From assembly GCA_964019335.1 (NCBI GenBank), contig OZ025755.1, positions 62,001 through 126,000 on the forward strand: a stretch of DNA of 64,000 nucleotides, read 5' to 3'. The stretch comes from Diplonema japonicum. Its lineage: Eukaryota; Protista; Euglenozoa: Diplonemea. The first letter of the stretch is position 1; each line of letters begins with the position of its first letter. A model generated the notes under the pieces. It was not told where the DNA came from and searched no databases. It worked only from the letters and a program-made list of their open reading frames with translations. This document shows, piece by piece, positions 9,102 through 53,190 of this stretch. The position numbers and the translations under genes were made by a program.

Positions 9102-12100
9102 CTAGTCGAGATGGATGTTGAGGTTCTCCTCGAATATTTTTGAATCGATCGTGTCGTCCACCAACAAATGGTACACCCTCACTGGGTGGCCCTGCCCATA
9201 TCGGTGGACCCTGCCCACGGCCTGTTTCTGCATTGCTGTGTACTTCACGTTGGACTTTGCGTACAAAGGATGGAAGAAAACTGCGTTCCGCGCACAGGTA
9301 AGATTGAGACCACTGGAGCTCACATCCAACGTGAGGAGAAGAACCCTGAGGATGCCCGTCTGGAAGTCGCGAAGGGTGTCTAGACATGACTTCCCGTTTT
9401 CCGTGATGCACCCGATCCCGATCTTCGCTTTCTTAAAAGCTGACAAAATGTGTTCAGTGAGGCTGTTGAACTGTGAAAAAAGAATCACCCTTTCGCTTCG
9501 GTCCTCCGCAAGCAACTCTGCCACTAACCGAGTCATTTCGACCATTTTGGTCTCAACACTGCCTCCCTCGCCGTTCATGGCGGTGTACGGGTAGAGATAC
9601 TGGCGTTTGAGAATTGCAGCACAACCTTTGTTGAAGCAACCGTCGTGGCCGTCTTCCAGACGTTCATCGATGTGGCATAGATGAGCTACATGACCGCATG
9701 TGCTTGAGATGCATAGAGGGCGGGTGTCTGATTCTGGTTGTTGCTTGTCGCATATTTCACATTGGAGTTTTTTCGCCATGGCATGCTGCATAAACCTCAC
9801 GCTTCGTGTGTTTTCAACTAGCTCCCTTGCGATGGATCTCAATTTGTGCGTTTGCTCGTCGAGATTGTACTTCAGCTCGTCGTCGGTTCCCTTTGGTTCG
9901 TTTGTTTTCTTCCCATTCTTCACCTTGCGCCCCTCGGCTTTCTTGATGATCTCTTTAATCGTTTTTGCGGCGTTGTCGTCTTCCGCAAGCGCGCCCTGCT
10001 CCCAGTTTTCAAATTTTCCGTTGTACCCGATTTCGTTTGTTTTTCTTCGGATCAAGGCACGGAGATCGAGCGCAGCGTTGAGGTTCGACAGAAGATTCTC
10101 CTTGCAATCGCAGATCCGTTTTCTTTTGTTCGAAAGAAGTTGTTCAAAAGAATCAGATTCGTGCGTTGCGGCGGCGTTCAGCAACGCTTCTGCAGCACTG
10201 TCTGCTGGAAGACTCTGCGCCGCAGTTTCCATCTGTTGATACACGATGGAGTGCACTCTTGAGAGGTTGAACCGCTTCTCAGTTACGGTGATAGGCAGCT
10301 CGTCGATCTCCGCGATGTTCTTTCTCACAAACATGTCAAGGAATCTCTGTGCTGCCTTGTACCGCTGTTCCTTCCACGAACCAGATTTCACGGTTCGCAA
10401 AGAGTGGAATTTTTCAGCGTCGGTGAGCTTAACCTCCGCCCGGACACCAAGATGGATTCCAAGCAAGCTTGCAATCTTACTAACCTCGTTGAAACTTGAC
10501 GTGTCGGGTGTACCAGATAGAAGCCACTTGTGGTGTGCCCTGAGCCTTTCCACGACTATATATTGGTCGTCTTTGAGAAACGTGTACTCATCAACAATGA
10601 TCCTCTTCCACGTGATGTGTTCCAGCTTTAAAGCCCGGGTTTCCTTGGGAGTGTCTAGAAATTCGTAATACTCTTTTCGGAACTTTCTGATATCGGTGTT
10701 CGCGTTCATATCGAGGCGCGACCTGGTGAGCAGTGTAGTAGACAGCAACACTATGTCCGAGGTGCAAAGGGTGTTTAGAGTGGCCCTGTCGAAAGCGGAC
10801 TTATTTTTCAATATGACGATTTTGGTGGACGGCGGGAGGAATTTTTCAACCTCGTCGGGCCATTGTGACATCAGATGGGGTGGGACAATCACTAGCGTGG
10901 CCTTCGACTTCGTGAAATTTTTCGCATCGACATAATATTCGGTTGGGTGGACATTGTGGTCGGACGCGATAAGAGAAAGTGAAACCACGGTCTTCCCGTA
11001 CCCGACTTCGTCGGCAAGAGCGCCGCCTCGAAGGGTCTTGGGGCATGTTGCTCTTCCTTCAACAGACCATCCTGAGATAGTCTGAGATACAATTTCCTGT
11101 TGGCGGAACGGTGTGTTATCGTTTTCCCTGCTGATCATCCACGAGAGGGACCTGAGCTGTTCGACGCGAAGGCGGAACGGTTCGTTCAGTTCCGGAGGGT
11201 TTTTGTGGGGTGGGTCGGTTCTGTTCCCAACAAGAACGAGCTCTCCTGTTTTCTGTACATCAGCGTCGGAAACCACCCTCCATGAGTACTCGCACTCTGT
11301 TTCAATTGTGTCATTGATGTTTGTTGTCAGTACTTGTGTCGCGCGGTGGATCACCGCCATTGGGTTCAGTGCGACCCTGATCTCGGTTTTCTTTTTCGAC
11401 GCAAGAGCTCGTTTTTGTACCGTGAACGCTTTCGGTCTGGCCTTCAGTGCTTGTTCGTACGCTGTCGCTTCCTTTTCGTCCTCTGTCAGACGTTTGCCCC
11501 ACTTAAGTGTCGGCTTCGGCGGGCTGCACTTTGTGCAGTTTAAAACGTTCAAACCACCGTTAATCGCAACTTTTACCCAGTTTGTAAAGATGTCCGGGAT
11601 TGTTAGAGAGCTCACTGCCCAACTCATGTCTGCGTTGCTGCATGATGTCCAAGTTTCGCATTTTGCCGCAATTGGCACCCTTGGATCCAACGAAAGCTTG
11701 GTCATGACGAAAGGATCGGAACATGTAGACTGTGCGATGTTAGGGAGGTGCTGGAGGTTCGACACCTCAATGCATTGGTTGAACCGGACGCCGCCTTTGG
11801 ATTCTACATACTCAGGAACGCATATTTTGAGCTTTTGGGGCTTGTCGGACAGACTCCACCCTGGAGGGGACGTCCCGAAGAAGTCACGGTGAAGGCCGAC
11901 CGGGAGTTTTTCATACGTCTCTGCGAAGCAAAAAACATCTTCTGTTGCCGTGCCCAGCGGGAGTAAATCTTTGAAGAAGTAACAGTCCTCGTCGAACCGT
12001 CGGTACAGGACTCCCATAGGCCCCCCGCATTTTGGAAGAAGATGATAGGTACCAGCAATTTTTTTCGCCAGCATGGTGCCTTTTGCCCATTCGGAGTTGC

Positions 12101-15100
12101 AGGTTACTTCCAAGACGCTGGGCACGCTGGGGAAGTCCACAGTAACACCCAGCTGGACCACCCACGGGTCCTTGTACTCCGTTCCCTTGAGGCTCAGTTC
12201 CAAGGTCTTATTTCGTTTGTACACGGTTGTCAGCTGCGGGGAGACCACAACTATCGGGACCCGTTTATTGGTCTCGTACACCCTCCACGTGATCCCCTTC
12301 AGCTCCGTGTCGAGCGTTGCGTGGGTGTGGAATTTTCTGTCGTCCGTCCAGTACTCCGCGACCCACTTTCGGGTTCTCCTTACCTTTTTGAGCTGGAAAA
12401 TTGCGTTTTGGAGGGGTTTCGGACTATCGTCGACGTGTATGGTGATGCACAAGGGTAAGGCCTGGAGGAGCATGTCTCTGAGTGCGGTAGGATCGCTTCT
12501 TTTCGGTGTGACTGTGACATAGTCGTGAATGGGGTTCCCTTTGCAGTCGCCGCACGCGCTGTACCCGCATTCGGAACACCGGTACAGGGAGTTCCTCGTC
12601 AGCTTCGTACTGAACGCCTCGCAGGCACAATGGAGCGAAGCCGGGTGCGCGTGTTCGATTAAAAATTTCATCGTGGCTTCGGGGATGCTGAGGGGAAGCA
12701 CTGCGTGCTCTGTTGCGTCGGTCAGTTCCTTGACCGTCGGTGCTCTGTTCGACTTTACCGGGCTCTGGCAAGTTGTTTCGGTTAATCTCCGTTTTTTCGC
12801 AGCCTTCAATGGAGCTTGGTACACCGTGAGCAAGGCGGACATGATGCATGCCCCGACAACGGTAGTAGTCATGGCGTTTCCAGCGAGGTCTTTCAATTGT
12901 TTTTCGGATTCTCTTGTAAGAGAGAGATCTTCGATGGGGATTCCTTGTATCGCTAGTGCTTCGGCGCCAACAAGCGGGCCGCCGCGTGATGTGAGGAAAG
13001 GAATCATGCTCGGGGTTAGACAAGGTACGATGCCTTGCTTGGAACAGTGCCCTCTGTCGACGTTGCAGGCTAAGTTCCAAATAGCGGAGCGGAACAGCGC
13101 GTCGTCGCTGTCACGGAGACCTTTCAGATACCGGATTTCAATTGTGTCCCTTACACGGTCTGTCATCGACCCGATCCAGTCTTTCCAGAACCAGTCGATC
13201 GGTTGTTGATGGCCTTTGCCGTCCCATTTTGTAAGCGGGCGTTGTTGTCCTAGATGGTTTATCGCGCGTTCTTTCGCGTGTCGCATTTCACATCGAAGCC
13301 AGTTGACCTCTTTTTTTTCTTTTTTGACCGATTTGTCCCGCGCCCTGACCACCATCGGGTCGTCGTCTGTCAGCAAATAGTCCGTGAAGTTCGACGGTGC
13401 GTTGCTCTGCAAACCCCGGATGATGTTGTTCCATTCGCAAAGATGTTTTTTGTCGCCCAGCGTCGCGCAGAGGTAGCCCCGTTCCCGGGTTTGTGGGAGG
13501 TAATGGTATTTTGTGTCAACTTTTATATGGCGGGTGGAGTATTTCTGCCCGTTGGGGAGGTCTAGGTTGCGAAAGGCAGCATTTATCTCGTCCCATGGAG
13601 CATGGCTAACATTCTCCAAAATGACAACCTTTGGTACGCTGCGTTTCACCCAGTCAAGCATTCCTCGAAATGTCATACCGGACTGCCCGTCATCGTCGAG
13701 ACCTTTTTGGAACTTGTTGAGCAGGCTGAAATCCTTGCAAACGGTTCCGGCAACCAGAACGTCGACTTCTGTAGGAACCCGAACGGTGGCGCCGTACGCT
13801 GTGGATGCGTGGGAGTTGCCCAGCTCTCGGATGTCTCTGAAAAGGATTTTCGGCGAGAAGTTTCTTTCGATGTACGCTTGTTTAAACGGTTCGATCTCGC
13901 AGGAAAACACATGCTCGAAAAACTCGAACCCAGCACCCTTTTGAAACATGCTAAGCGCGAGCAACGGTGCTTCCGTTCCCGAACACATGGTGGCAACGCG
14001 AATCTTTCGGTTTTTCGTCAGCTCCTTGATGTTCCGCATGGGTTCGGGCCATTTCTCCTCGATGGTTTTCGCCATATCGTCGAACATGTCCTGGGGCCTC
14101 GAGAACCATTTCTCACCAGGTGCCCATTTTCCGCGGGGGGCGTACGATGTCCCATTGTCGTCCTCACTGTCAGAAGAGTCGGCCTTCCGTTTTCCAACAG
14201 TTTTCCTCCTCGTTTTTTCAATTGGTTTTTTTCGAGCTGCAAGCAATTCCGGCGAAGACCCAGTCCCGGTGCTGCTACTACTGCTGCTGGAGGAATCCTC
14301 TTCTTCCGATGAAGGGTCTTCTTCTTCTTCTTCTTCTTCCTTAGTTGTCAGCCGCACTCCAGAGTCTGTCGTGAACACCCATCCTGTAGATATTTTTTCC
14401 ACAGAGGCCACCTTGCAATACACCAACCGGGTGCCGAACAGTGAAAGATCAAGATTTTCACCATCGTCCGCTGACACCTCGGTTGTCCCGATCAGGAAGC
14501 AGTCGCTGCACCCTTTTTTGAGCATGATGTTCTTCGTGGTTGGACGTCCGTTCAACAGTGCCAGGTATGACAGAAGTTTAGCATCGTTCGTAACTGTATA
14601 TTGATCAATTGGTTCGGGGAGGATTTCCGGTGCGGCCCATAGCAGGTTCGATGGTGTGAGATGGGCCAACAGCGCGGACTTGGAGCTGTTTGATAGGGAA
14701 AGCGGTTTTACCGCATCGCCCCGAAATCGGACAGCTATCCTTGTCAGGAGAACATTGATGCCCTCCAGTAGGTGTGGGGATATAGGTTGGGCATTGTTTG
14801 TCAGACTGGGTTCCGGTGGGGGTTTCTCAGTGCCTTTCCACCCAGAGTGGTCTTTTGGGATTTGTTTCAGTGTAATTAGGACACCGTTAACGGTTACTCT
14901 GTACCAATTTCGGTGCAGAATTGACTGGACCCACAGCCCGCTCCACGGTCCTTTTTCTTTGATGTTGCGGAGACATCCTATTTTGAAGGAAACTTTTGTG
15001 CGGTTTACTGGTAGGCATCCTCCGTTGTAGAGCGGTACTGCTTCTCCGGAAACGGTTAAGTACGAGCCTGATTGGAGCATTTTTGTGAGTTTCGGCATCG

Positions 15101-15398
15101 TTCTAGGGCCGGTGTAAGGTTGTCCCTTGTATGTCATGGTTGGGTTGAATAAATGTCTGTCGGGGCCTGTAGCCTCGCCTTTTCCCTCGCCTTTCAGGGC
15201 GATCTGTTCTGTAACGGCTGTGTGGTCTTCACCTGGGAGGCAGAAGGGATCGATGTCGATGATGGGTTTTATCATTAGATTGTCATTAGCGTCCACAATA
15301 TCCTTAAGAATTTCCCTCTGGCCGTTTCCTATCGACAGTGGAATGGGTAGTGAAAGCCTGCGAATGGCCTCACCCACGATTTGGAGGCGATCGGGCAT
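9102..15398 (-). CDS. DNMT5: DNMT5-family cytosine-5 DNA methyltransferase fused to SNF2 ATPase and RING-like finger
   Basis: MTase motifs VATMCSGTEAP, FSCEIEPFKQAYIERNF, LVAGTVCKDFS (catalytic Cys), ILENV, LPQTRERGY, LAGNAM. SNF2 motifs LADEVGYGKT, IVDEY, LSGTP, GLNLTCA, QAVGRVHRYGQ. CEIC..CGH..C RING-like insert. Uninterrupted 2098-aa ORF. Confidence 0.93.
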   Translation of the reverse strand: MPDRLQIVGEAIRRLSLPIPLSIGNGQREILKDIVDANDNLMIKPIIDIDPFCLPGEDHTAVTEQIALKGEGKGEATGPDRHLFNPTMTYKGQPYTGPRTMPKLTKMLQSGSYLTVSGEAVPLYNGGCLPVNRTKVSFKIGCLRNIKEKGPWSGLWVQSILHRNWYRVTVNGVLITLKQIPKDHSGWKGTEKPPPEPSLTNNAQPISPHLLEGINVLLTRIAVRFRGDAVKPLSLSNSSKSALLAHLTPSNLLWAAPEILPEPIDQYTVTNDAKLLSYLALLNGRPTTKNIMLKKGCSDCFLIGTTEVSADDGENLDLSLFGTRLVYCKVASVEKISTGWVFTTDSGVRLTTKEEEEEEEDPSSEEEDSSSSSSSSTGTGSSPELLAARKKPIEKTRRKTVGKRKADSSDSEDDNGTSYAPRGKWAPGEKWFSRPQDMFDDMAKTIEEKWPEPMRNIKELTKNRKIRVATMCSGTEAPLLALSMFQKGAGFEFFEHVFSCEIEPFKQAYIERNFSPKILFRDIRELGNSHASTAYGATVRVPTEVDVLVAGTVCKDFSLLNKFQKGLDDDGQSGMTFRGMLDWVKRSVPKVVILENVSHAPWDEINAAFRNLDLPNGQKYSTRHIKVDTKYHYLPQTRERGYLCATLGDKKHLCEWNNIIRGLQSNAPSNFTDYLLTDDDPMVVRARDKSVKKEKKEVNWLRCEMRHAKERAINHLGQQRPLTKWDGKGHQQPIDWFWKDWIGSMTDRVRDTIEIRYLKGLRDSDDALFRSAIWNLACNVDRGHCSKQGIVPCLTPSMIPFLTSRGGPLVGAEALAIQGIPIEDLSLTRESEKQLKDLAGNAMTTTVVGACIMSALLTVYQAPLKAAKKRRLTETTCQSPVKSNRAPTVKELTDATEHAVLPLSIPEATMKFLIEHAHPASLHCACEAFSTKLTRNSLYRCSECGYSACGDCKGNPIHDYVTVTPKRSDPTALRDMLLQALPLCITIHVDDSPKPLQNAIFQLKKVRRTRKWVAEYWTDDRKFHTHATLDTELKGITWRVYETNKRVPIVVVSPQLTTVYKRNKTLELSLKGTEYKDPWVVQLGVTVDFPSVPSVLEVTCNSEWAKGTMLAKKIAGTYHLLPKCGGPMGVLYRRFDEDCYFFKDLLPLGTATEDVFCFAETYEKLPVGLHRDFFGTSPPGWSLSDKPQKLKICVPEYVESKGGVRFNQCIEVSNLQHLPNIAQSTCSDPFVMTKLSLDPRVPIAAKCETWTSCSNADMSWAVSSLTIPDIFTNWVKVAINGGLNVLNCTKCSPPKPTLKWGKRLTEDEKEATAYEQALKARPKAFTVQKRALASKKKTEIRVALNPMAVIHRATQVLTTNINDTIETECEYSWRVVSDADVQKTGELVLVGNRTDPPHKNPPELNEPFRLRVEQLRSLSWMISRENDNTPFRQQEIVSQTISGWSVEGRATCPKTLRGGALADEVGYGKTVVSLSLIASDHNVHPTEYYVDAKNFTKSKATLVIVPPHLMSQWPDEVEKFLPPSTKIVILKNKSAFDRATLNTLCTSDIVLLSTTLLTRSRLDMNANTDIRKFRKEYYEFLDTPKETRALKLEHITWKRIIVDEYTFLKDDQYIVVERLRAHHKWLLSGTPDTSSFNEVSKIASLLGIHLGVRAEVKLTDAEKFHSLRTVKSGSWKEQRYKAAQRFLDMFVRKNIAEIDELPITVTEKRFNLSRVHSIVYQQMETAAQSLPADSAAEALLNAAATHESDSFEQLLSNKRKRICDCKENLLSNLNAALDLRALIRRKTNEIGYNGKFENWEQGALAEDDNAAKTIKEIIKKAEGRKVKNGKKTNEPKGTDDELKYNLDEQTHKLRSIARELVENTRSVRFMQHAMAKKLQCEICDKQQPESDTRPLCISSTCGHVAHLCHIDERLEDGHDGCFNKGCAAILKRQYLYPYTAMNGEGGSVETKMVEMTRLVAELLAEDRSERVILFSQFNSLTEHILSAFKKAKIGIGCITENGKSCLDTLRDFQTGILRVLLLTLDVSSSGLNLTCARNAVFFHPLYAKSNVKYTAMQKQAVGRVHRYGQGHPVRVYHLLVDDTIDSKIFEENLNIHLD

Positions 15399-16050
15399 TT
15401 TTTTTCCTTTTTTTTTTTTCCCGCTTTTTTTTTTATCTGCCTGAAAAAAAAAAGAAAAAAAAATGAGAAAAAAAAAAAAGGAAAAGGAAAAAAAAAAAAA
15501 AAAATCGGCAGAAAAAAATAAATCTCAGCTTTTCTTTTTTTTTTTTGTACAACAGGTGCCCTTCCACGTTTGTTGTGGTGGATTGTTGAATGTATATATG
15601 AGATTCATTGCTTGTTTCTCCCTCTTTTTTTTTTACCAAAAAAAACAAATAATTACGTGAGGCTTAGCAAAAGTGGCTAGCCTAAGAAGGGGGGGAAGAA
15701 TAAAGAAAGAGAAGGTAAAAAATAAAAAAAAAAAGTATAAAAAAAAGAGAAAGAGAAGAAAAATGAGCTATCTTTATCAATTCTTGTATCCTTTGCTTTT
15801 TCTTCTTCTTTTTTTTTTCTTCTTCTTTTTTTTTTTTTTTTTTTACTCCTAGTTATTAGATTTCTTTTTGCTTCTTTTTTATATTTTTACTTTTTTTTTT
15901 TTTCTTACTTCTTCGCATACAAGTTCGGAAGAAATTTAAAAAAAAAAAAGAGAAAATTAAAGAGAGGGAGCAAAAAAAAAAAGAAAAAAAATTTAAAAAA
16001 AACAGGGGAGGAAAACAAACATTAGAGCTTTATAGATTAAAAAAAAAAAA

Positions 16051-20143: not shown

Positions 20144-20718
20144 AATAACTATTTATTGCCAACAAATAATGAGTCATTATTTAACTCGAGTTCCCGAATT
20201 TTTTGCACGAGGGCCCGCAGGGCCCGAGTGCAAAAAAACGGGTAACGAGTGTTAAATAATGGCTCATTTGGCGGCAAGTAAGTCGTTTTATTTCACTCTT
20301 CGTCATTTGAGTCACTCACTCTTCACTGCTTTCACTGCTGTTTTTTTTCACGCAGGTCAGCTTTTTGGGGATTTTCCTAAGGTAATACAGGGTAGCTATT
20401 TCGCCGTGGCATTTAAAGGGGAAGTAAGGCACTTATTCCCACTTTTAAGGGCTGGAATGGCCTCAGATGGCCAAAAATAGTCAAAATACCCCCACCCCAA
20501 AAAAATTTTTCAAGGGGTTGGGTGCATTTTTTTCCACGACAAGACCCATTTTTTCACTCTGAAGGGCCATTATTTAACTGCAAAATCTCATTATTTAACT
20601 AGTTAAATAATGGCGATTTCGCGTTAAATAATGGCCGTTTCGCGTTAAATAATGGCCATTTCGCGTTAAATAATGAGGCCCCTAGTGAGTGAAGAAAATG
20701 ACGAAGAGTGAAATAAAA
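20144..20718 (+). mobile_element. Non-autonomous Crypton-like hairpin element, copy 1 (575 bp)
   Basis: Near-identical inverted copy at 50765-51339. About 130-nt terminal hairpin (20153-20281) with core cacGAgggcccGCAgggcccGAgtg. Internal inverted pair tttatttcactcttcgtcattt / aaatgacgaagagtgaaataaa. No TIR pair or clear TSD; aataa at both termini. Shares the terminus actatttatt and the hairpin layout with the YR-bearing element at 22588. Confidence 0.8.
20602..20675 (+). repeat. 21-bp tandem repeat (3.5 units) inside the hairpin element
   Basis: gttaaataatggcgatttcgc, gttaaataatggccgtttcgc, gttaaataatggccatttcgc, gttaaataatg; mirrored in copy 2. Confidence 0.9.
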
Positions 20719-20808
20719 AAAAAAAAAAAAAAAAAAAAAAAACTATAAAAAAAAGGGGTGGATGAGTAAGAAAAAAAAAAAAGAAGAAGGAAAAAAAATT
20801 TTTTTTTC

Positions 20809-21881
20809 TTATTGGGTTGTTTTTGGTTTCTTTGTCTTGGGGAGGATGGAGGGACCCACCTCGTCGCTGCCCTCCACCAAACCCATTCCAGACGAGCGTT
20901 TCCTCTTGTGCGCCTTGAATTTTCTGGTCCCCATGGTCGCAAGCTTTTTCGTCTGCGCCTCAAGATGCAGCTGCCCGTGTTGACCGAGCATATCGGTGGA
21001 CATATTTTTCGCGTTTTTGACAATAACACCTTTCGGTTGTTTGCATGTGAATCTGTGTTTTTTTTTTTTTTTTTTTTTTAAATTCTCCCATACTTGAACA
21101 TCTGCGGTGTCGCGAATGCGACCCGCCTCACCTCGAAATCAATTGTCGGCCCCACGTTGGTGAGCTCGATTTTCGGGATTTTTGTTCCGGATTTTTTCAA
21201 GGCCACCGCGTAATGCCGGACCATAATGGTCGCGTTCTCCACCGAACGGCCGTCGTCCGCTACTGTAATCTCTTTGCTGGGGTTTGTGGGCCTCACGGTG
21301 ACGTCGATAACGTGGTCCAACCCCAAGAGCTGCACCTTCTCGATAATCTTCCCACGGAAGAAATCCGCAAACAGGTTTTGAATCCTCTGAAACGTTGGGT
21401 TTGTGTTGAACAGGGAACCGTGGAAAAGCATCATTGGCTTGGAACCTGCGATGACCCTTGTTGAATCTGTGAAGCCTTCGTACTTGGTGATACCGAGTTC
21501 CAACATATCGAGAACTTGGTAGTCAAACTGCCTGCCGATAATGAAGTTATGCGGGCGTTTTTTTTTCGCACCTCCAACATGCGAACCGAACGCGAACAGA
21601 GACGAATCGTTCTTGAACGCAAGGAATTCCAAATGCTTCGCATCGTCAAACGGCCGGAACGGGTTCTTTTGTGTCAGCTTCACCGCGTACGGTTTTTTCA
21701 ACATGTACAAGTCGGTCATGACACTTTGCACCACACCGCTGCATCGCTCGCCCTTCAGGAAAATACAGGTCTTTGGGTTCTCAATCCGTTTTGGCATCAC
21801 CTTCTTCAGCGCAACTTTTGCCTTGTGTGTTTTCGGTGCGCCTCGCACCAGCCCTCCCGAAGTTGTGTGCCCGCTTACCAT
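20809..21881 (-). CDS. RPF2: Ribosome biogenesis protein RPF2 (Brix domain); 1 intron 21053-21093
   Basis: Motifs PKRIENPK, KNDSSLFAFGSH, KKRPHN, DMLELG, GSKPM, GLDHV, IELTNVGP. Removing the 41-nt gtatgg..(A)n cacag intron restores the typical C-terminus KQPK..KNMSTDMLG..TRKFK. Confidence 0.92.
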
Positions 21882-22587
21882 TTTTTTTTTTTACCCCCTT
21901 TTTTTTTTTTTTTTTTCTTTGCGGGATGAACAAACAAGAAGGGTGGGAAAGAAGATTATAAGCTCGAAACAAATGGCGGGGGGACACGGGGAGAGGGATC
22001 TTCTCAAAAAAAAAAAAAAAAAAAAAAAAAAGTAGCTGTAAATCTCTTAAATTTTTTTTGTTCCTGAAAAAGAAACAAGGGGGTTGGCTGCATGGAAGAA
22101 ACAAGAAAAGAAAAAAAAATAAAAAAAAATATGTCTCGCATGATGCATATTTTTTTTTTAATTTTTTTTTCCCCCTCGTTCCCCCTCTTCTTCCCTTCTT
22201 TTCCAGAAAAAAAAACTGAGAGATGCCACAGTACAATTGTTGGGGGGAGGATTTTTTTTTTTTTCCTCCTTTCTTTCTCAATCACTGAGAATAATTGTTG
22301 TCACAAAACAAGAAAGGTGGGGGGGCAAAAAAGAATAAATTGAGGGGGGGTAGATAAAAAGAAGGAAATAAAATGTTGCTTAACCCTTAGGCGCCCAGGG
22401 GGGGGGGGGGGGGGGGTTCTTCCTTTTTCCTTTTTTTTTTCTTCCCTTTTTTTTCGAGACGGACTTTTTAAAAAAATATAAATTCTTTTCCTTTTTATTT
22501 ACTTTACCTGCCTCCTCTCCTCTCTCCCTCCCCCCCCCCTTTTTTTACTACCTATTTATTTACTTAAACAAGCCAAAAAAAAAAAAA

Positions 22588-23430
22588 ACTATTTATTTAG
22601 TGAATATAAGATCCTATGATTTCACGCGTGGTGGCAGTGGTTTTGACGAGTGAGGTAATTACTTCACGAGCGAAGCGAGTGTTATAACGTTTAACGAGTC
22701 AAAACTGCCACCACAAGTGAAATCATCAATCTTATATTCACAAATACGTTATTTTATTTAACGACAGCAAAATTTGAGTGGGTGGGAGGTACAGGTGGAA
22801 CCAGTTACAACAGGTGTCGGATATGTGCCTCGGTAGTGCACATGTTTCCTGCGAACATCAACGCTGCATAAGCGTGGCGGACGATGCCATACCTCGGTGC
22901 TAAAGAGTTCTGTTATTTGCTCTTGGGTAAAGATTTTCGCCTTTTTTGTTGACTCGCCTTCTTGGAACCTCTTGAGGGGGGACCTTTAGTCGGGGGTGGT
23001 CTTGCAACTGCTTGTTGTAATTCCTCTTCACAACCGAGTTTAGCCTTGAATAAACCGTCCGGACTGAACGGGCAGCAGGCCTTGCTTGTTCACGTCGCTA
23101 AAATAGAGAATAGAATCCTCTTCTTTCGGACGGGCCCTTCTTTTCCTTCCTATAATTATGAAACACACAAAAGCGTGCCCACTCCTTTTCGTATGGCTCT
23201 TGGAAGGGGGTGAACCCTGCGTCCGCCTCTTGTGCAGTCGGGTTCTTGCCCATCCCAAAGGAACCTTGGTAGGAATTTCTGGAGGGTTTTGCTTAAATTA
23301 GGCCCAGGAGTGAAATAATATTTCATATTTTAACGCTATCAGAATCTTCACTCCTGGGCCTAATTTCTTTTAGAAGCCGCAGCGTGAAAATAAAATCAGG
23401 AGTGAAATAAAGTGAATTCTTATTTTCACT
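22588..23430 (-). mobile_element. Internally deleted Crypton-like (tyrosine recombinase) element
   Basis: About 150-nt imperfect hairpin at 22594-22746 centred on cacGAgcGAAgcGAgtg (22665-22681). YR remnant inside. Second inverted repeat aaattaggcccaggagtgaa/ttcactcctgggcctaattt at about 23295-23366, plus repeated gagtgaaata motifs. Right boundary approximate. Confidence 0.72.
22850..23215 (-). pseudogene. Frameshifted tyrosine-recombinase N-terminal remnant
   Basis: Stitched minus-strand frames read YEKEWARF..SE/EEDSILYFSD..TVYSRLNSVVKRNYNKQLQDHPRLK..LKRFQEGESTKKAKIFTQEQITELF. This fits the pattern I recall for eukaryotic Crypton YRs (YE..Y..F..SE..LL.YF..YS.L.S..LKR...GY.PKK.K.L/FT.EE). 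Catalytic core mostly deleted. Confidence 0.65.
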
Positions 23431-23480
23431 CCCACCCATGAAAATTTTGGTGGAGTTAAATTTAAAAAAAAAAAAAAAAA

Positions 23481-33060: not shown

Positions 33061-34674
33061 CCATTAAACCCACATGTCATATATTTTTGACATAAAAAAA
33101 AAAGAAAAAATATATAGGCCTTTTAGTCAAATTATGACCTTTCTTTCACTTTTCTGACGCCATTGCGCGATTTTTTCCACTTTGTTTGGCTAAATGCTGC
33201 CCTTTTTCAGCATTATTTTAAGAATTTGAGAGGTCGAAAATCCGGGGAAAAAATGATTTTAGAATGAAGAATACTCGACTGGAGCAGAGGGCTGGTCGTG
33301 AGTGATAAAGAATGCGAAGAAATGTCAGAAAATGGTAGTTCTGAGTCTAGTAGTGCTTGGGGGGAGGAAAGTGTGGAAGAATTGGAGGAAATGGGGTGGA
33401 AAGAGGCAGTGTAATCGAACCAGCAGACGACCCAACAGGGAAGAGCCCTCTCCAGCTTTTTTATTCGTTTTTTACACCATACACCCTCCGATGCCTGACA
33501 GCATTCACAAACAACCACCTGGAGCGCCGCAAAATCGACAAAAGAGTCACGGAAGCCGAAATCCGAGCGTTTCTGGGCCTATGGGTGTTAATGGACCTCA
33601 CCACCCGTCCCAACTTCCGTGACTACTGGAAAACCGATCCTGACTCCATTATGCATACTCAGGGGTTTGCGCGCGTCATGTCCGGAAACCGGTTTGAGCT
33701 GTTCTTTGGAAACATATATCTGTGCCCGGGACCTGATCAGTGGCAGGGAGGAAAGCTTGTGCTTCTCCTGAGCGCACCCCCTTTCAAGCCAAAGATGACC
33801 GCCACTCGGCAAAGATGGGTCGGCAAGGCAAAGAAAAAATCCAGGGTCGCCTTTCCCATTCCAAAGGTCGTTGAAACCTACACCTCCCTTATGGGGGGTG
33901 TAGATGGGAACGACGCTGCCACCCAACGCAACACAAACCGGTGGCAGATGAAAATATTAAGGTTCCTGCTTGACAAAAGCCTCTTCAACTGCTGGGTACT
34001 TGCGAAGAGCGTCAATTCCCCCATCAAGTTCAATGAACTGGAAGAATGCATCGCACACGGCCTCTGTAAATGCATGGGCAAAGAACCTGCACCATCGAGA
34101 CCACAAGACTCGAAGGATGAAAGGTTTGACCGCATCAAAGGGCATTTTCCTGCAAAGATTAGCATAATAAGTGCGTAGTCCATCATTGCATGGTCCCAGA
34201 AGGTCCTCTGGCTATGAATGTTCCACCTGTGGCAAGTATTCCACACCTTGCTTTTGGCTTACCACCTGAACGGAGACATCACCGAGGATGATCTTCAGGA
34301 GCCCGAAACACCGACAAGTACCAGAAACTCACTGATGGACCCCCGGACCCCCTCCACTGGCCAGAGAGGTGTGAAACGCAAGCTAAATCTGGGCTAGAAT
34401 AGTGTTACAAGGGGTTTTTAGTGCATTTTATTATTATTTATTTTGCACTTTTTCCTACTCCTCTTCCCCCCCTTTACCAAAAAGGGTGTTGGGTCAAAAA
34501 TCATAAGTTCAAAAGCCAGTTCAGGGGAACCCTGATACCTGAATGTCTCCAGAGGTCATTTCTCCATAAAAAAAACACTTTGTATGGTTAAATGCTGCCA
34601 CTTTTTTTGAATTCTTTGGAATCGCCTCAAAAATGGGCTTTTTTCGGTTTTTTTTTTGCCTGTGGGCTTAATGG
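33061..34674 (+). mobile_element. Defective piggyBac element 1
   Basis: TTAA at 33057-33060 and 34675-34678. TIRs ccattaaacccaca / tgtgggcttaatgg (1 mismatch). Broken transposase with EIRAFLG, RDYW, MSGNRFE, MGGVDGND and a degenerate Cys-rich tail; central catalytic region deleted. Confidence 0.92.
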
Positions 34675-34832
34675 TTAAAAAATTAAAAAGGCGTCTTCTT
34701 GACTCATCATTTCCCCTTATTTTCATTCTTTTTTTTTTTTTTTTTTGTTTCCCGGAAAATAACTTTCCCCCAGGAAGGTTTCAGCCACAACAATAAACAA
34801 AAACAAAAAACTTTTTTTTTTTTTTTTTTTAA

Positions 34833-37031
34833 CCATTAAAGGACGGGGGTTTTTGGGCAAAAAAAAGGTCACCATCGACTTTTTTATTTTCTAAAATTAA
34901 AACATCCTCGAGCATGCAACCATAGAACGACGCTTGTGTAAAAGAAAATACATCACCCAGGAGGGACAAAAAACACCCCCAGACGCCCCTCAAAGGCCCT
35001 GGGAAGTGAATAGAATAAGGAATTGAAGTGAAATTTATTGTAAAAACCCACCCATAGGTTAGACACTTCCTTACTTTTTTCGCTTGGGCCTCGGAGTGCT
35101 AGGGGGGGTTTTGCTTTTGGGACTTGGCTCAGATGACGACCTGGGGAGAAGGGTATGTGTTTGGAGACGCTGGTACCTTCGGCGTTTCTTCGGTGTGGCC
35201 GGGCCTCCAGAGGGGGTAGATTGGGGTGGGTAAACCACCGGTTCGTGATAGTCCGCAAAGCAAGCTGGGCACAGATGCACGTTACAAGCCTTGCAGATGA
35301 AGATAGTTTGCACCCGGACCCCCAAAACACGCATGTGGTGTGTGCATTGTCTTGCTGCATCCAGTTTTTTGGACCAGTGACCTTTGGTGAAGTCGCGCCT
35401 GGCATCTTCCCTGGGCCCCTCGGTCCCCATTTCAGAACGGGTGCTTGCTGGGCGGTTGTTTCCGGACTGGCGCATAACAGACGAAAAGCTGTTGTCGCTC
35501 ATCGCGAACCCGTTTTTGGGCCTGCCTGGGCCTACTTGCTTCTTCACTGGGGCAAGATTAGGTACATTCTGGCGGTTTTCTTCGGATTGTTACCACCATT
35601 GACTGGACTTTCCTCGGATTGTTTCCACCACAAACCCGATTCCCACATCTGTTGTACAAGGGTAACGCCAGTATAGAAGTTATCGATGCCGGGGTACAAG
35701 GGGAACGCTACCGATGCCGAGCCATCCACCAGGTGGACACGAATAGTGGCATCGACAAGTCACGTGGGGTGCGCTTTCAGACTGAGCACGACGTTCACTT
35801 CATGTCAAGCAAGACGCCATTGAAGGCACCGCAGGAGATACGGGAGAACGTTGTAAGAGCTTTCATTGTCGCGCTCGAGCTGCAGGACAAGAAGCTCGAA
35901 GCAGAGCTCCGCCGCCGAGACATTCTGGTCGCCATGTTGTCCTTTTTTGGCATCATAAGCATTGGTGCTTCTGCAGTGATCACGTGGTTCACCAATCCTG
36001 TACGCGAGTCAGGGCTCCCAAACACCAGCACCCCCCTACAATGACCTCGATCCTTCACCAAATGGGAAGGTAATATGCCAAGTGCTGAGATACCTCACAT
36101 CGGGGTCCACAGTGCTGTGTTTGATTGCTTTTTCACGCTTTTACAATGGTATTAGCACTGCGGACAGTAGATCGACAAGTTGAACACGACCCTGTGTCAG
36201 ATCCTGTCCGGTGGCACAGCCTCACCTGTCCTCTTTGCAGGCTGGAATACTCTGAAGCGATGCCTACCGTGTGACTTGATCATACTCTCATCAATGATCG
36301 ATTCTCCGGGGGAATAGTGTTGCAGACAGGTAGGGGAGCAAGAATCTTATTTTTTGCAACCTGTCTGTCTCTTCACCCCTCCAAAATGCAACGACCGCTG
36401 TAAGCGCAAAAAGCAGTAACGTTTCATTACACTTGCCAAAAAAAGGTGTGGCGAGGGCACAAATGGTCGGCCAGTAATCTTTTATGCCAGCCTTGCGGAT
36501 GATGTCCATGAGCACCCACAAGGCCAGAAACTGATAGATATCGTCCACAGTGAAGTCAAAGTCGGGGTTGTGGTACTTGCAAACGGTGCAAAGAGATTTC
36601 ACAAACCCCATTGAGATGAACAGCTTGGAAATCCTTGATGCACTCATGTGGGAAAAGGGTGATTTCTGCCCCCCCTGTGCCCTGTCACTTCTTACGCGTA
36701 ACCTGCGTAATATCGCTCTCCCAGGGCATATTTTCACTCTTCTCGTCACTACTGGCGCTAGGTGAGGTCCCATCGTCAGTGAGAATGTCCCCTTAGGCAC
36801 TCCCGAACTCGTCTGAATCAGTACTGCTCATATGAGCTTTCGTGCCACCAAAAACTGGTTTCGAGGGTGTTTTTGGAGGTTAATCTAGGGGACAAAAGTG
36901 ATTTTCGATGGAAAAGAAATCGCGGAACTAGGTCATTCTGTGCAAGGGTAAGGGTCTATGGTACTTAAAATGCCTATACAAAAATTTTAATTTTTTGATC
37001 GCTAGATATCTAGCGCTTCGTCCTTTAATGG
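34833..37031 (-). mobile_element. Defective piggyBac element 2
   Basis: TTAA at 34829-34832 and 37032-37035. Perfect 13-bp TIRs ccattaaaggacg / cgtcctttaatgg. Minus-strand fragments IKDYW, IDESMIKSHGR, IDNFYTG and C-terminal CKACNVHLCPACFADYH. Confidence 0.92.
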
Positions 37032-50105: not shown

Positions 50106-50764
50106 TCTCCTTTTTTTTCCCCCCCCTCTTTTTCCTTTTTTTTTTCCTTTTTGTAGGGTTGAAGAAAAAGAACACAGAAATTGAGAAGAAAATAAGACGC
50201 AAAAAAAAAAGAAAAAAAAAAAAAACGGATGTCGGGAAAGATGAATGTTTAAAAAAAAAAAAAAAGGTGGACTTGCGCGAAGCAGTGGGGGGGAGGGGGG
50301 GGAAACGATATCCCACCACATTGGAGTATATCCAAAGGTTTGCGGCTGTTTGCACAAAAAAGGAGGGGGGGAAGTGAAGAAGCCACAATATTCTTTTTTT
50401 TTTTTGCTTCATAGAAAAAAAAAAAAGAAAAATTGTGTTTGTTCATTTCACGGAACGTAGTTTTTGTGCTATATTCAACTGATTATTATTAACCCCCCAG
50501 CATATATCTTAAAAAAAAAAAAAAAAAAAAAAAAATGGGCGAGACCTTCGAGTGGCGGTGATGCAACTGTGTGACACCTGTGTCCTCTGTCAATCCGGAT
50601 AGCCAGCTTGATAGACATCCCCTGCACAGTGGGGAAAAGTTATGTCAGAACCCCGAAAGTTTCTCGTTCTATATTGAGAACGAACAAAAAAAAATGGCGA
50701 ATTTTACTCCCTGGAGACTATACGGTTTTCTTAACGAATAACCTGTATAAGTGGTTTTTTTTTA

Positions 50765-51339
50765 TTTTATTTCACTCTTCGTCATTTTCTTCACTCACTA
50801 GGGGCCTCATTATTTAACGCGAAATGGCCATTATTTAACGCGAAACGGCCATTATTTAACGCGAAATCGCCATTATTTAACTAGTTAAATAATGAGATTT
50901 TGCAGTTAAATAATGGCCCTTCAGAGTGAAAAAATGGGTCTTGTCGTGGAAAAAAATGCACCCAACCCCTTGAAAAATTTTTTTGGGGTGGGGGTATTTT
51001 GACTATTTTTGGCCATCTGAGGCCATTCCAGCCCTTAAAAGTGGGAATAAGTGCCTTACTTCCCCTTTAAATGCCACGGCGAAATAGCTACCCTGTATTA
51101 CCTTAGGAAAATCCCCAAAAAGCTGACCTGCGTGAAAAAAAACAGCAGTGAAAGCAGTGAAGAGTGAGTGACTCAAATGACGAAGAGTGAAATAAAACGA
51201 CTTACTTGCCGCCAAATGAGCCATTATTTAACACTCGTTACCCGTTTTTTTGCACGAGGGCCCTGCGGGCCCTCGTGCAAAAAATTCGGGAACTCGAGTT
51301 AAATAATGACTCATTATTTGTTGGCAATAAATAGTTATT
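50765..51339 (-). mobile_element. Non-autonomous Crypton-like hairpin element, copy 2 (inverted)
   Basis: Reverse complement of 20144-20718. The only difference I found is 2 nt in the hairpin core (51256-51257). Confidence 0.8.
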
Positions 51340-51552
51340 CTTCTTCCCTACACGCAACAAAAAAAAAAAAAAAAAAAAAAGGAGCGCCCTGGTAGAGAGA
51401 TTGTGTGTTGAGAAAATACCCCCTTACTCTTCTTCTTTTTTTTTCTTTTCCATTTTTCTTCTTTTTTTTTTTCCATCCATTCATTGCACTTTTGTTAAGA
51501 AAAAAAAATGCGTTTTCTTTCTTTTTTGGAGAGAGCAACTTAGAGAGCAATT

Positions 51553-51994: not shown

Positions 51995-53190
51995 CCATCT
52001 ACCAACGGACCATTTTGCACACAGGGGGTAAATTTTCAAAACTTTAAAAAAAAAGTATTCTAGCGCAACGCTGGGGCTATATGCCCCCGGAAATGCCTCC
52101 AGATGTCCCAATTCTAGAGAGAGGGTGCCCACAGCAGGGCCCACCCCCACAACATTGTCACCCAGGTCGGTTCCGCCCATTGGTGTTGTAAATATGCACT
52201 TGAGGGATGTCCTTTCTGGAAGGCCTCCGGCTTTCATTCTCTTTTGGCCGACACGCCAAATTTGACTTCACCAGAACATCCAACGTCGACAGAAAGCGCA
52301 CAGGCTTGATGTCATGCCACGTTGTGGTGCAAAGGATGCTCACGTGCTGGTGGAACTGGGTGTCCCCACAGGGTGCGCGTCCTTGGGTTTGCGGACTCGC
52401 TTTGGGGCATCCGTGATCTCCGGGAGGCCTTTGCGATAGGTAGAAGTCAGCACGCTTGTTTGTTTCGCTGTGGAAACACAGATTTCCCAGAATAGTCAAA
52501 AAGCGGTCTCTTGACATGACGGTGGCGTACCCAGGGGTGTGGTTGAGAGGCGTGGAACCAGTACGCCAGTAGTCAGAATAATCTGGCATGATATCAAATC
52601 CATCGACAAAAGGGCACCTAGGAAGGTATGCAGAGAAGCAGCATCGAGATCCAGGGAAACACCTTTTTTAGCCGCATTTGCAACATTGTTCGAAGTTATG
52701 ACCCGAATAACGTTTGGGACGAGCATTTGGGAGAATTTTTGGTACGGCGTTGAGCCTCTGATGTCAAAACAGGGTCCACAAGGATTCCGATCTTCACGAA
52801 ACTGGATGCCTTCCAACTGCTCCGGCTTTGTCGTCCAATCACCCTGCTGTGACTCGGAACCGGTCGAATTCGTATCAGAATCACTGTCTGTATCAAAATT
52901 GCATAATAGGGATGAGCCATCAGTGCTACCATCACTCATAATGTCCTCTTCCGGCTTCTTTCTGGGTGCCCTTTTTTGAAGTGATTTTTAAGGGTAAATT
53001 TGGGCTGGCGTTTTTTTTTTATTTTTTCATTTTCTTGCAAAGTTAGCGGGAGCATTTAGTTTATATTTTTCATATTTTCCGCGCAGGACCCCGGATGCGA
53101 GAAGTGGCCGGGCTGTATTGCATTGAAAGCCCCTTGCGCAAAAGATTTTTTTTTCAAATCGCCTCTATAAAGAAGCTCGTTGGTAGATGG
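51995..53190 (-). mobile_element. Defective piggyBac element 3
   Basis: TTAA at 51991-51994 and 53191-53194. Perfect TIRs ccatctaccaacg / cgttggtagatgg. Fragments TFLGALL, DYSDYW, MSRDRFLTIL, WHDIKPVRFLST, MGGTDLGD. Confidence 0.92.

Follow-up and report, generated by a model that had tools for sequence, protein, structure and literature searches.

Do the tyrosine recombinase (YR) elements found at one locus of the diplonemid Diplonema japonicum move as double-stranded DNA, or through a single strand folded by their own ends? This question is raised by positions 20144-23430 of a 64-kb stretch of contig OZ025755.1 (the whole stretch, hereafter the window), a eukaryotic sequence with few introns and many A/T tracts, for which an earlier note, made from the letters alone, had proposed Crypton-like elements whose ends conserve a single-strand DNA structure. 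The interval is not a single object: it comprises two separate elements, E1 and E2, which flank a host Brix-domain gene, and E2 extends to about 23466. Both are high-copy, non-autonomous, internally deleted elements, and they are likely derivatives of a Crypton-type DNA transposon. The anatomy of their ends suggests, by analogy with integron attC sites and the CTX phage, that they would move by a single-strand exchange on a folded strand that is resolved by replication, a reading to which we give a probability of roughly 55%.

E1 is a non-coding element of about 570 nucleotides (nt) found twice in the window, as copy a (20149-20718, + strand, the strand that bears the hairpin loop and mismatches described below) and as copy b (50755-51335, - strand); copy a has a 99% inverted match to 50755-51348. 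E2 (22589-23466, + strand) is about 880 nt long, and its inverted repeat, contig cover and whole-element fold place its right border at 23465-23468, within an A-tract. Family-level data come from public-run contigs over the two elements (four runs each; X1, X9, X6 and X2 for E1), in which summed depth is not copy number and is used solely as an indication of many copies. Runs X12-X20, whose share is small, do not count here as evidence for the range of the elements. Read in this way, summed depth in run X1 is about 6e5-1.9e6 over E1 versus 1344 in its flanks, and 5e4-2.8e5 over E2 versus 503 in its flanks. The contigs of both elements stop at the element ends, the family cover of E1 ending at both borders, and the right end of E1 is followed by an A-tract: at the matching place of copy b, 36, 30, 24 and 7 contigs in the four runs have T-run loose ends, the T-tract on the + strand of copy b being the A-tract that lies after the element. 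Internal deletions with filler letters occur at many contig joints of both elements (among the 15 of 135 joints listed for E1 and the 15 of 26 listed for E2). No coding remnant was found in E1, which is linked to E2 through its ends.

Each element carries an asymmetric inverted repeat with one terminal and one internal arm: 20286-20320 with 20684-20718 in E1 (35 nt, 91%) and 22749-22788 with 23429-23468 in E2 (40 nt, 78%). The absence of terminal inverted repeats (TIRs) announced by the earlier note thus holds for symmetric TIRs only; no target site duplication is evident in the flanks, which are A-tracts. In both elements, the internal arm runs unbroken into the complement of the left start. 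In E1, this internal complement of both ends (20273-20320, + strand) pairs through 20273-20285 with the left start (20149-20160), with one T.C mismatch, one T.G wobble and one bulged G (the pairing of 20149-20155 being assigned by eye), and through 20286-20320 with the right end. In E2 (22730-22788, + strand), 22730-22753 is complementary to the left start and 22749-22788 to the right end, as indicated by inverted repeats of 40 nt (78%) and 31 nt (74%) and by the folds. Fold energies and z scores were obtained with ViennaRNA as DNA minimum-energy folds of both strands. In the folds of the whole elements, the two end helices close side by side (z -13.3 for E1, -10.7 for E2), and this topology is the same in both families despite their differing interiors. 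The likely recombination site is this pairing of both ends with the internal complement, at the fold-back base, and not the hairpin tip. This feature, the most relevant one to mechanism, is absent from the earlier note.

When the ends are joined by eye, two A/T-rich boxes surround six bases, of which two close the right end and four open the left end. In E1, four positions of this spacer form Watson-Crick pairs with 20282-20287 and the other two are T.C and T.G, the three positions nearest the right end being AAC/GTT, and the bulged G (20278) lies three pairs beyond the spacer. In E2, pairing is clean merely at the two bases nearest the right end in the family majority (A at 22749, 58380/60789 of the X1 depth), and a bulge is found at 22599. 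A predicted folded site with paired boxes, an unpaired spacer, a bulged base, an AAC/GTT crossover (in E1) and a variable terminal structure is reminiscent of the attC sites recombined by IntI (PMC2727003, PMC4792948). However, attC is one contiguous palindrome, whereas the E1/E2 site would form only when both ends meet on the internal copy.

Between the left start and the internal complement stands a long hairpin (20168-20268 in E1, 22594-22746 in E2, + strand). The common start of both families, ACTATTTATT, is located at 20148 and 22588 (all the coordinates of the earlier note are correct), and also at 51326-51335 on the minus strand. These three matches compare with 0.10 expected, and none of 100 shuffles reaches three (motif counts over the whole window were compared with expectation and, for two patterns, with 100 shuffles). 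The fold-back that follows this start is also confirmed in both families and on both strands, with z scores of about -8 to -9: -41.2 kcal/mol (z -8.75) on the + strand and -37.7 (z -8.10) on the - strand for E1, -42.8 kcal/mol (z -9.11) and -41.5 (z -9.05), respectively, for E2. In each family, the stem includes a box pair (20177-85/20251-59 in E1; 22617-25/22717-25, with one mismatch, in E2) whose distance is 28 nt both to the left start and to the internal box. The box consensus GTKAAATAA has 24 matches in the window versus 1.16 expected, and 23 of the 24 are inside E1a, E2 or E1b. The proposal that structure rather than sequence is conserved is thus half right: the interiors differ, but the start and the GTKAAATAA boxes at equal spacing are common to both families, whose arms are not wholly unrelated.

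Boxes also accumulate near the right ends. E1 has an array of six GTTAAATAA boxes (20567-20675; two reverse, four forward, with a 21-nt period) ahead of its terminal arm (20684-20718, + strand), and these boxes are likely candidate binding sites for the recombinase or an accessory protein. The right subterminal region of E2 (23295-23468) contains a perfect 20-nt inverted repeat (23295-314/23347-366), GTGAAATAA boxes and the terminal arm. In one X1 contig, the right end of an E1 copy is fused at the GTTAAATAA box to the 3' hairpin arm of a second copy (window 50759/51231), which may reflect nested insertion into a target resembling a box. An 11-nt copy of the first bases of E2 is found at 22552-22562, 37 nt upstream of E2 and ahead of an A-tract; it may be an older end, a scar or a chance match.

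At the tip of each hairpin is a c-GNA-g triloop closed by a C:G pair, GCA at 20217-20219 in E1 and GAA at 22672-22674 in E2, and each stem includes two tandem GA/GA mismatches (20188/20247 and 20209/20226; 22648/22696 and 22668/22677), 17-19 nt apart in E1 and E2 alike. These loops and mismatches had been reported in the earlier note and all are present. The four mismatches stand in a C-GA-G context, and a Y-GA-R context favours sheared tandem G.A pairs. In DNA, d(GNA) loops with a C:G closing pair have exceptional stability (PMC3201870). Both families carry tip motifs of a kind that is stable on one DNA strand only. The pattern CGAG-N0-6-CGNAG-N0-6-CGAG, which was picked post hoc, matches the window twice, at these two tips, versus 0.12 expected, and one of 100 shuffles reaches two.

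These motifs are kept in most, not all, copies, although the figures are blurred by dead copies and by cross-mapping of the arms. In E1, the GA/GA mismatch at the tip is the majority state by summed depth in X1 (433245/564741, 77%), X9 (58521/79480, 74%), X6 (166533/227918, 73%) and X2 (24834/29625, 84%), and the A of the loop is altered in 0.3-5% of the depth. Next to the basal GA/GA, a T.T mismatch has become a pair in 18-31%, and no change of the basal GA/GA itself appears among the 40 of 47 E1 variants listed; this basal mismatch takes an alternative register in centroid folds. E2 contigs with a different 5' arm (X1 and X11, with loose ends before 22664) rejoin at 22664 with the tip kept, and no variant at 22665-22681 is seen among the 40 of 71 E2 variants listed.

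The boxes, being present in both orientations and in tandem arrays, would also fit duplex sites, as expected for a classical Crypton that forms a double-stranded circle by two strand exchanges and whose hairpin, complement and boxes are duplex accessory sites or a transient cruciform. The left flanks, A-rich and with a short direct repeat, resemble the right end, in line with the model by Goodwin et al. to which PMC3212892 refers, and the computed strand asymmetry is weak. Nevertheless, a purely duplex pathway leaves unexplained the four independent C-GA-G/C-GA-G mismatches and the two c-GNA-g loops, as well as the presence, in both families, of an internal complement that covers the two ends and has a mismatched spacer, and we consider it rather unlikely.

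The minus strand of E2 harbours the decayed 5' part of a likely Cre-type YR gene (22808-23253), detected through its frames, phmmer and look-alikes in the ESM Atlas. The decayed frame starts from an ATG at 23253, and its core-binding (SAM-like) domain extends to about 22975; further frames, seen by eye only, include a KKAKIFTQEQI segment and then a possible box-I segment with Cys in place of the expected Arg. A one-base deletion at 22976, present in each of the four runs, brings two frames of the remnant together. Among 1.84 billion representative sequences, phmmer retrieved two matches, P0002 and P0003 (E 1.4e-4). P0002 is an open reading frame (ORF) from a D. japonicum transcript, is 95% identical to the remnant and aligns to three repeats of P0003 (best pairwise E 1e-9). 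In the ESM Atlas, 12 of the 30 matches of P0002 are Phage_int_SAM_1 clusters at 0.95, the top cluster having no name, and residues 505-770 of P0003 match, at 0.96, arthropod clusters in which 58% of members have Phage_integrase, and, at 0.94, one DUF3504 (17%) cluster. These comparisons provide good grounds for reading the remnant as an integrase core-binding domain, the only domain for which the YR remnant claimed earlier is supported. Its assignment as a Crypton recombinase is indirect. It may resemble CryptonI motifs, as the arthropod clusters suggest, but the catalytic domain, on which placement among the CryptonI and CryptonA/F/S/V clades depends, is missing. Globally, the proposal of Crypton-like, YR-derived, non-autonomous elements is upheld by this integrase-like remnant and by the ends that E1 shares with E2.

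Other searches were less informative. The AlphaFold model of P0002 alone (three helices, predicted local distance difference test score 58) has no Foldseek match and is uninformative; P0003 has no match in a sequence search of the PDB, and when the later frames of the remnant and a frame of E1 were compared with P0003 by BLASTP, no alignment was significant. A back-translated KKAKIF-type pattern matched three loci, all levivirus replicases, and was rejected as chance. P0003 itself (1048 amino acids, four integrase-like repeats in which no catalytic residue is seen by eye) resembles the product of a domesticated gene of the Crypton type.

The combination of a YR with an internal region complementary to both extremities is known from DIRS-1, where this internal complementary region (ICR) is essential for retrotransposition and where the cDNA is single-stranded and antisense (PMC7192593). 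E1 and E2 could thus be deletion derivatives of a DIRS-like retrotransposon, their + strand being a first-strand cDNA whose ends are splinted by the ICR into a circle, which is then made double-stranded before integration by the YR. The structured strand is here also antisense to the YR gene, and the family is represented in a transcriptome (P0002). However, no remnant of reverse transcriptase, RNase H or gag and no long inverted long terminal repeats are seen in E1 or E2, deleted copies that limit this result, and the YR gene starts about 215 nt from the element end. Furthermore, the DIRS-1 ICR is exactly complementary, whereas E1 and E2 have a mismatched spacer and an additional hairpin, and GNA triloops, described as DNA motifs, would fit a cDNA but not a role in RNA. 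A DIRS-like origin appears distinctly unlikely. A main function as RNA structure was likewise rejected: the sequence also folds as RNA, but it is antisense to the YR gene, and the cGNAg motif belongs to DNA. Rfam returned 20 weak matches, none at gathering score.

Tips of this kind are not restricted to YR elements. In the prokaryotic genomes of GTDB, the sequence of the E2 tip is present in an estimated 2700 or so stretches (from 3 of 64 parts) versus about 280 expected at even base composition, a number that would be higher in GC-rich DNA. The GNA/GA tip is therefore not diagnostic of a tyrosine recombinase. In viral contigs, the E2 tip pattern has 122 loci, of which 74 were examined; only two of these (L014, L079) have a centred inverted repeat of at least 16 nt, to which L013 and L006 can be added by eye, and no YR was found beside the viral loci with long-stem E2 tips in searches of which one covered two of five loci. 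The E1 tip pattern has one viral and six metagenome loci and caps a long fold-back in one of these seven, on an unrelated metagenome contig where a near-identical tip caps a 150-nt fold-back (L130, z -20), with no gene within that contig end. The attC terminal structure has no role in strand choice according to PMC2727003. Since this is so, and since the E2 tip is common in prokaryotes, mostly without a long stem at the viral loci, the most likely role of the tip is in folding and in choosing the strand, not in catalysis.

Several loci bearing such tips deserve a brief description. L013 (2850-4999; also L006) is an AT-rich 2.1-kb element resembling a miniature inverted-repeat transposable element, with long inverted ends that each carry an E2 tip hairpin and a second GA/GA-GAA hairpin; no recombinase was seen in it. 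In a phage contig (L079, 2988-3030), the E2 tip stands on a perfect 16-bp stem between replication genes, possibly a single-strand origin. Among prokaryotic E2-type tips, a short Acinetobacter contig (L141, 150-330) has several GCGAAGC/GCGAAT motifs, L159 is a haloarchaeal intergenic site, and L212 (300-420) has inverted pairs of tips in a Saprospiraceae repeat.

The occurrence of similar tips in prokaryotic repeats of the repetitive extragenic palindromic type is among the facts that would suit rolling-circle elements. E1 and E2 would then be non-autonomous Helentron/HINE-type elements mobilised by an HUH enzyme, E2 having merely captured a piece of an integrase gene. Seen from the minus strand, their layout recalls HINE and DINE-1, with subterminal inverted repeats, a 3' stem-loop, T-rich insertion sites and many non-autonomous copies (PMC4067079). 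However, the subterminal inverted repeats reported there are 12-15 bp long and the palindrome 5-10 bp, whereas E1 and E2 have repeats of 35-40 nt and fold-backs of 100-150 nt; neither shows a Rep/helicase remnant, and the remnant that takes its place, that of a YR, spans the whole E2 family. We regard a Helentron-type origin as very improbable.

Under the preferred single-strand exchange, the + strand would be exposed, and its left start and right end would both pair with the internal complement, thereby forming the recombinase site. The c-GNA-g loop, together with the C-GA-G mismatches, would seed the fold and keep it stable on this strand only, while further protomers of the recombinase or an accessory protein would occupy the second box pair, which lies 28 nt higher in the stem, and the box arrays near the right end. 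One strand exchange at the folded junction, between two A/T-rich boxes around the 6-nt spacer, would release a single-stranded circle. In the reverse reaction, the folded junction of the circle would attack an A-rich duplex with which it has two or three bases of homology. A second exchange would be prevented by the mismatched spacer, so that replication would resolve the junction and one daughter would retain the donor copy. E1 would borrow its recombinase in trans. The exchange and its resolution have a counterpart in attC sites and the CTX phage, with their folded single strands, AAC/GTT microhomology, unpaired spacer and replicative resolution (PMC4792948, PMC2727003), and strand-biased circularisation by YRs is described in the Vibrio SE elements (PMC9345347). 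Such a route would also explain why the Cryptons of Chlamydomonas show clean excision and yet a gain of copies (PMC9977147).

Various observations weigh against this pathway. Pfam recognises no integrase family in six remnant frames, P0002, P0003 and a 35-amino-acid frame, and neither does PHROGs; word-index protein searches, and a search of viral contigs with P0002, found no intact recombinase, R-H-R-Y tetrad or full-length element. ViennaRNA prefers a local hairpin (22650-22667) over the E2 tip in the DNA minimum-energy fold, and the modelled difference between strands is merely 1-4 kcal/mol, so strand specificity rests on motif identity and not on computed energy. The conservation of the GA mismatches is incomplete: they are present at all four sites of both families, but the tip mismatch is absent from 16-27% of the E1 depth and from one of the two window copies (in copy b it is changed to two Watson-Crick pairs, a minority state of the family), and one X9 contig keeps the E2 loop and has lost the tip mismatch. 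Palindrome arms can align to each other in contig data, and no compensatory change is seen among the variants listed. The bulge differs between E1 (20278) and E2 (22599) in strand and distance, and the AAC/GTT match, complete in E1, is incomplete in E2. Finally, no circle junction or empty site is found among the joints listed, an absence that says little in contigs.

E1 and E2 would probably be Cryptons by descent and, by prediction, attC/CTX-like in action. Like CryptonI and CryptonA, the class would have a YR as its apparently sole gene (represented by the core-binding domain in E2, and by no remnant in E1), many internally deleted derivatives that keep both ends and no evident target duplication (PMC3212892), as well as arthropod integrase-like clusters among the look-alikes of P0003, the phmmer relative of the remnant. 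However, animal Cryptons are described as devoid of direct or inverted terminal repeats, and a double-stranded circle is assumed for them (Kojima & Jurka 2011, PMC3212892), whereas E1 and E2 have an asymmetric inverted repeat, an internal complement and a GNA/GA hairpin; the hosts listed in that work are fungi, animals and stramenopiles, whereas the present one is a euglenozoan. In the CTX phage attP(+)/XerCD system, a long fold-back of a single-stranded circle similarly mimics a duplex site and undergoes one exchange with replicative resolution (PMC4792948), but CTX hijacks a host recombinase and uses a single chromosomal site, whereas the E1/E2 class would have its own YR and has dispersed A-rich sites. 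Searches of the open-access literature showed no description of this end design or of Cryptons in diplonemids, although Repbase entries or supplements may describe such ends. The main text of the 2026 Glomhopper paper contains neither "hairpin" nor "single-stranded" (PMC13465315), and PMC12130899, PMC5753468 and PMC6681497 contribute classification only. The euglenozoan host and the family-level variant data are new.

The double-stranded circle of Cryptons is itself modelled by analogy, and active Cryptons have been observed once, with both excision and a gain of copies (PMC9977147). More tentatively, and with slightly less than an even chance, Crypton-type transposons across eukaryotic supergroups, here in Euglenozoa, may move in the manner of integrons and CTX: a YR would act on a folded strand, the internal complement would align the ends, GNA/GA caps would choose the strand and replication would resolve the junction, with copy gain and no double-strand excision, the internal complement being the ancestor or twin of the DIRS ICR. 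As the ends of E1 and E2 single out one strand and its fold, delimit a crossover region and offer features that can be mutated, the question can be tested with a purified recombinase and oligonucleotides. If this reading is true, the single-strand YR recombination of integrons and the CTX phage also drives a class of eukaryotic transposons, and the end anatomy would allow Crypton derivatives devoid of any gene to be recognised.

The host Brix-domain gene that separates E1 from E2 (21078-21890, - strand; Pfam PF04427, E 7e-40) belongs to neither. A single composite element containing this gene was considered and rejected, as E1 occurs alone at 50755-51348 and the family cover ends at the borders of each element. 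Elsewhere in the window, broken piggyBac-type transposases are found at 33354-36827 and 52158-52987 (PF13843, E 1e-20 and 2e-8), with a zinc finger at 35071-35589. An ORF of 2140 amino acids (9102-15524), which we take to be DNMT5-like, joins by eye a cytosine methyltransferase to a SNF2-type helicase.

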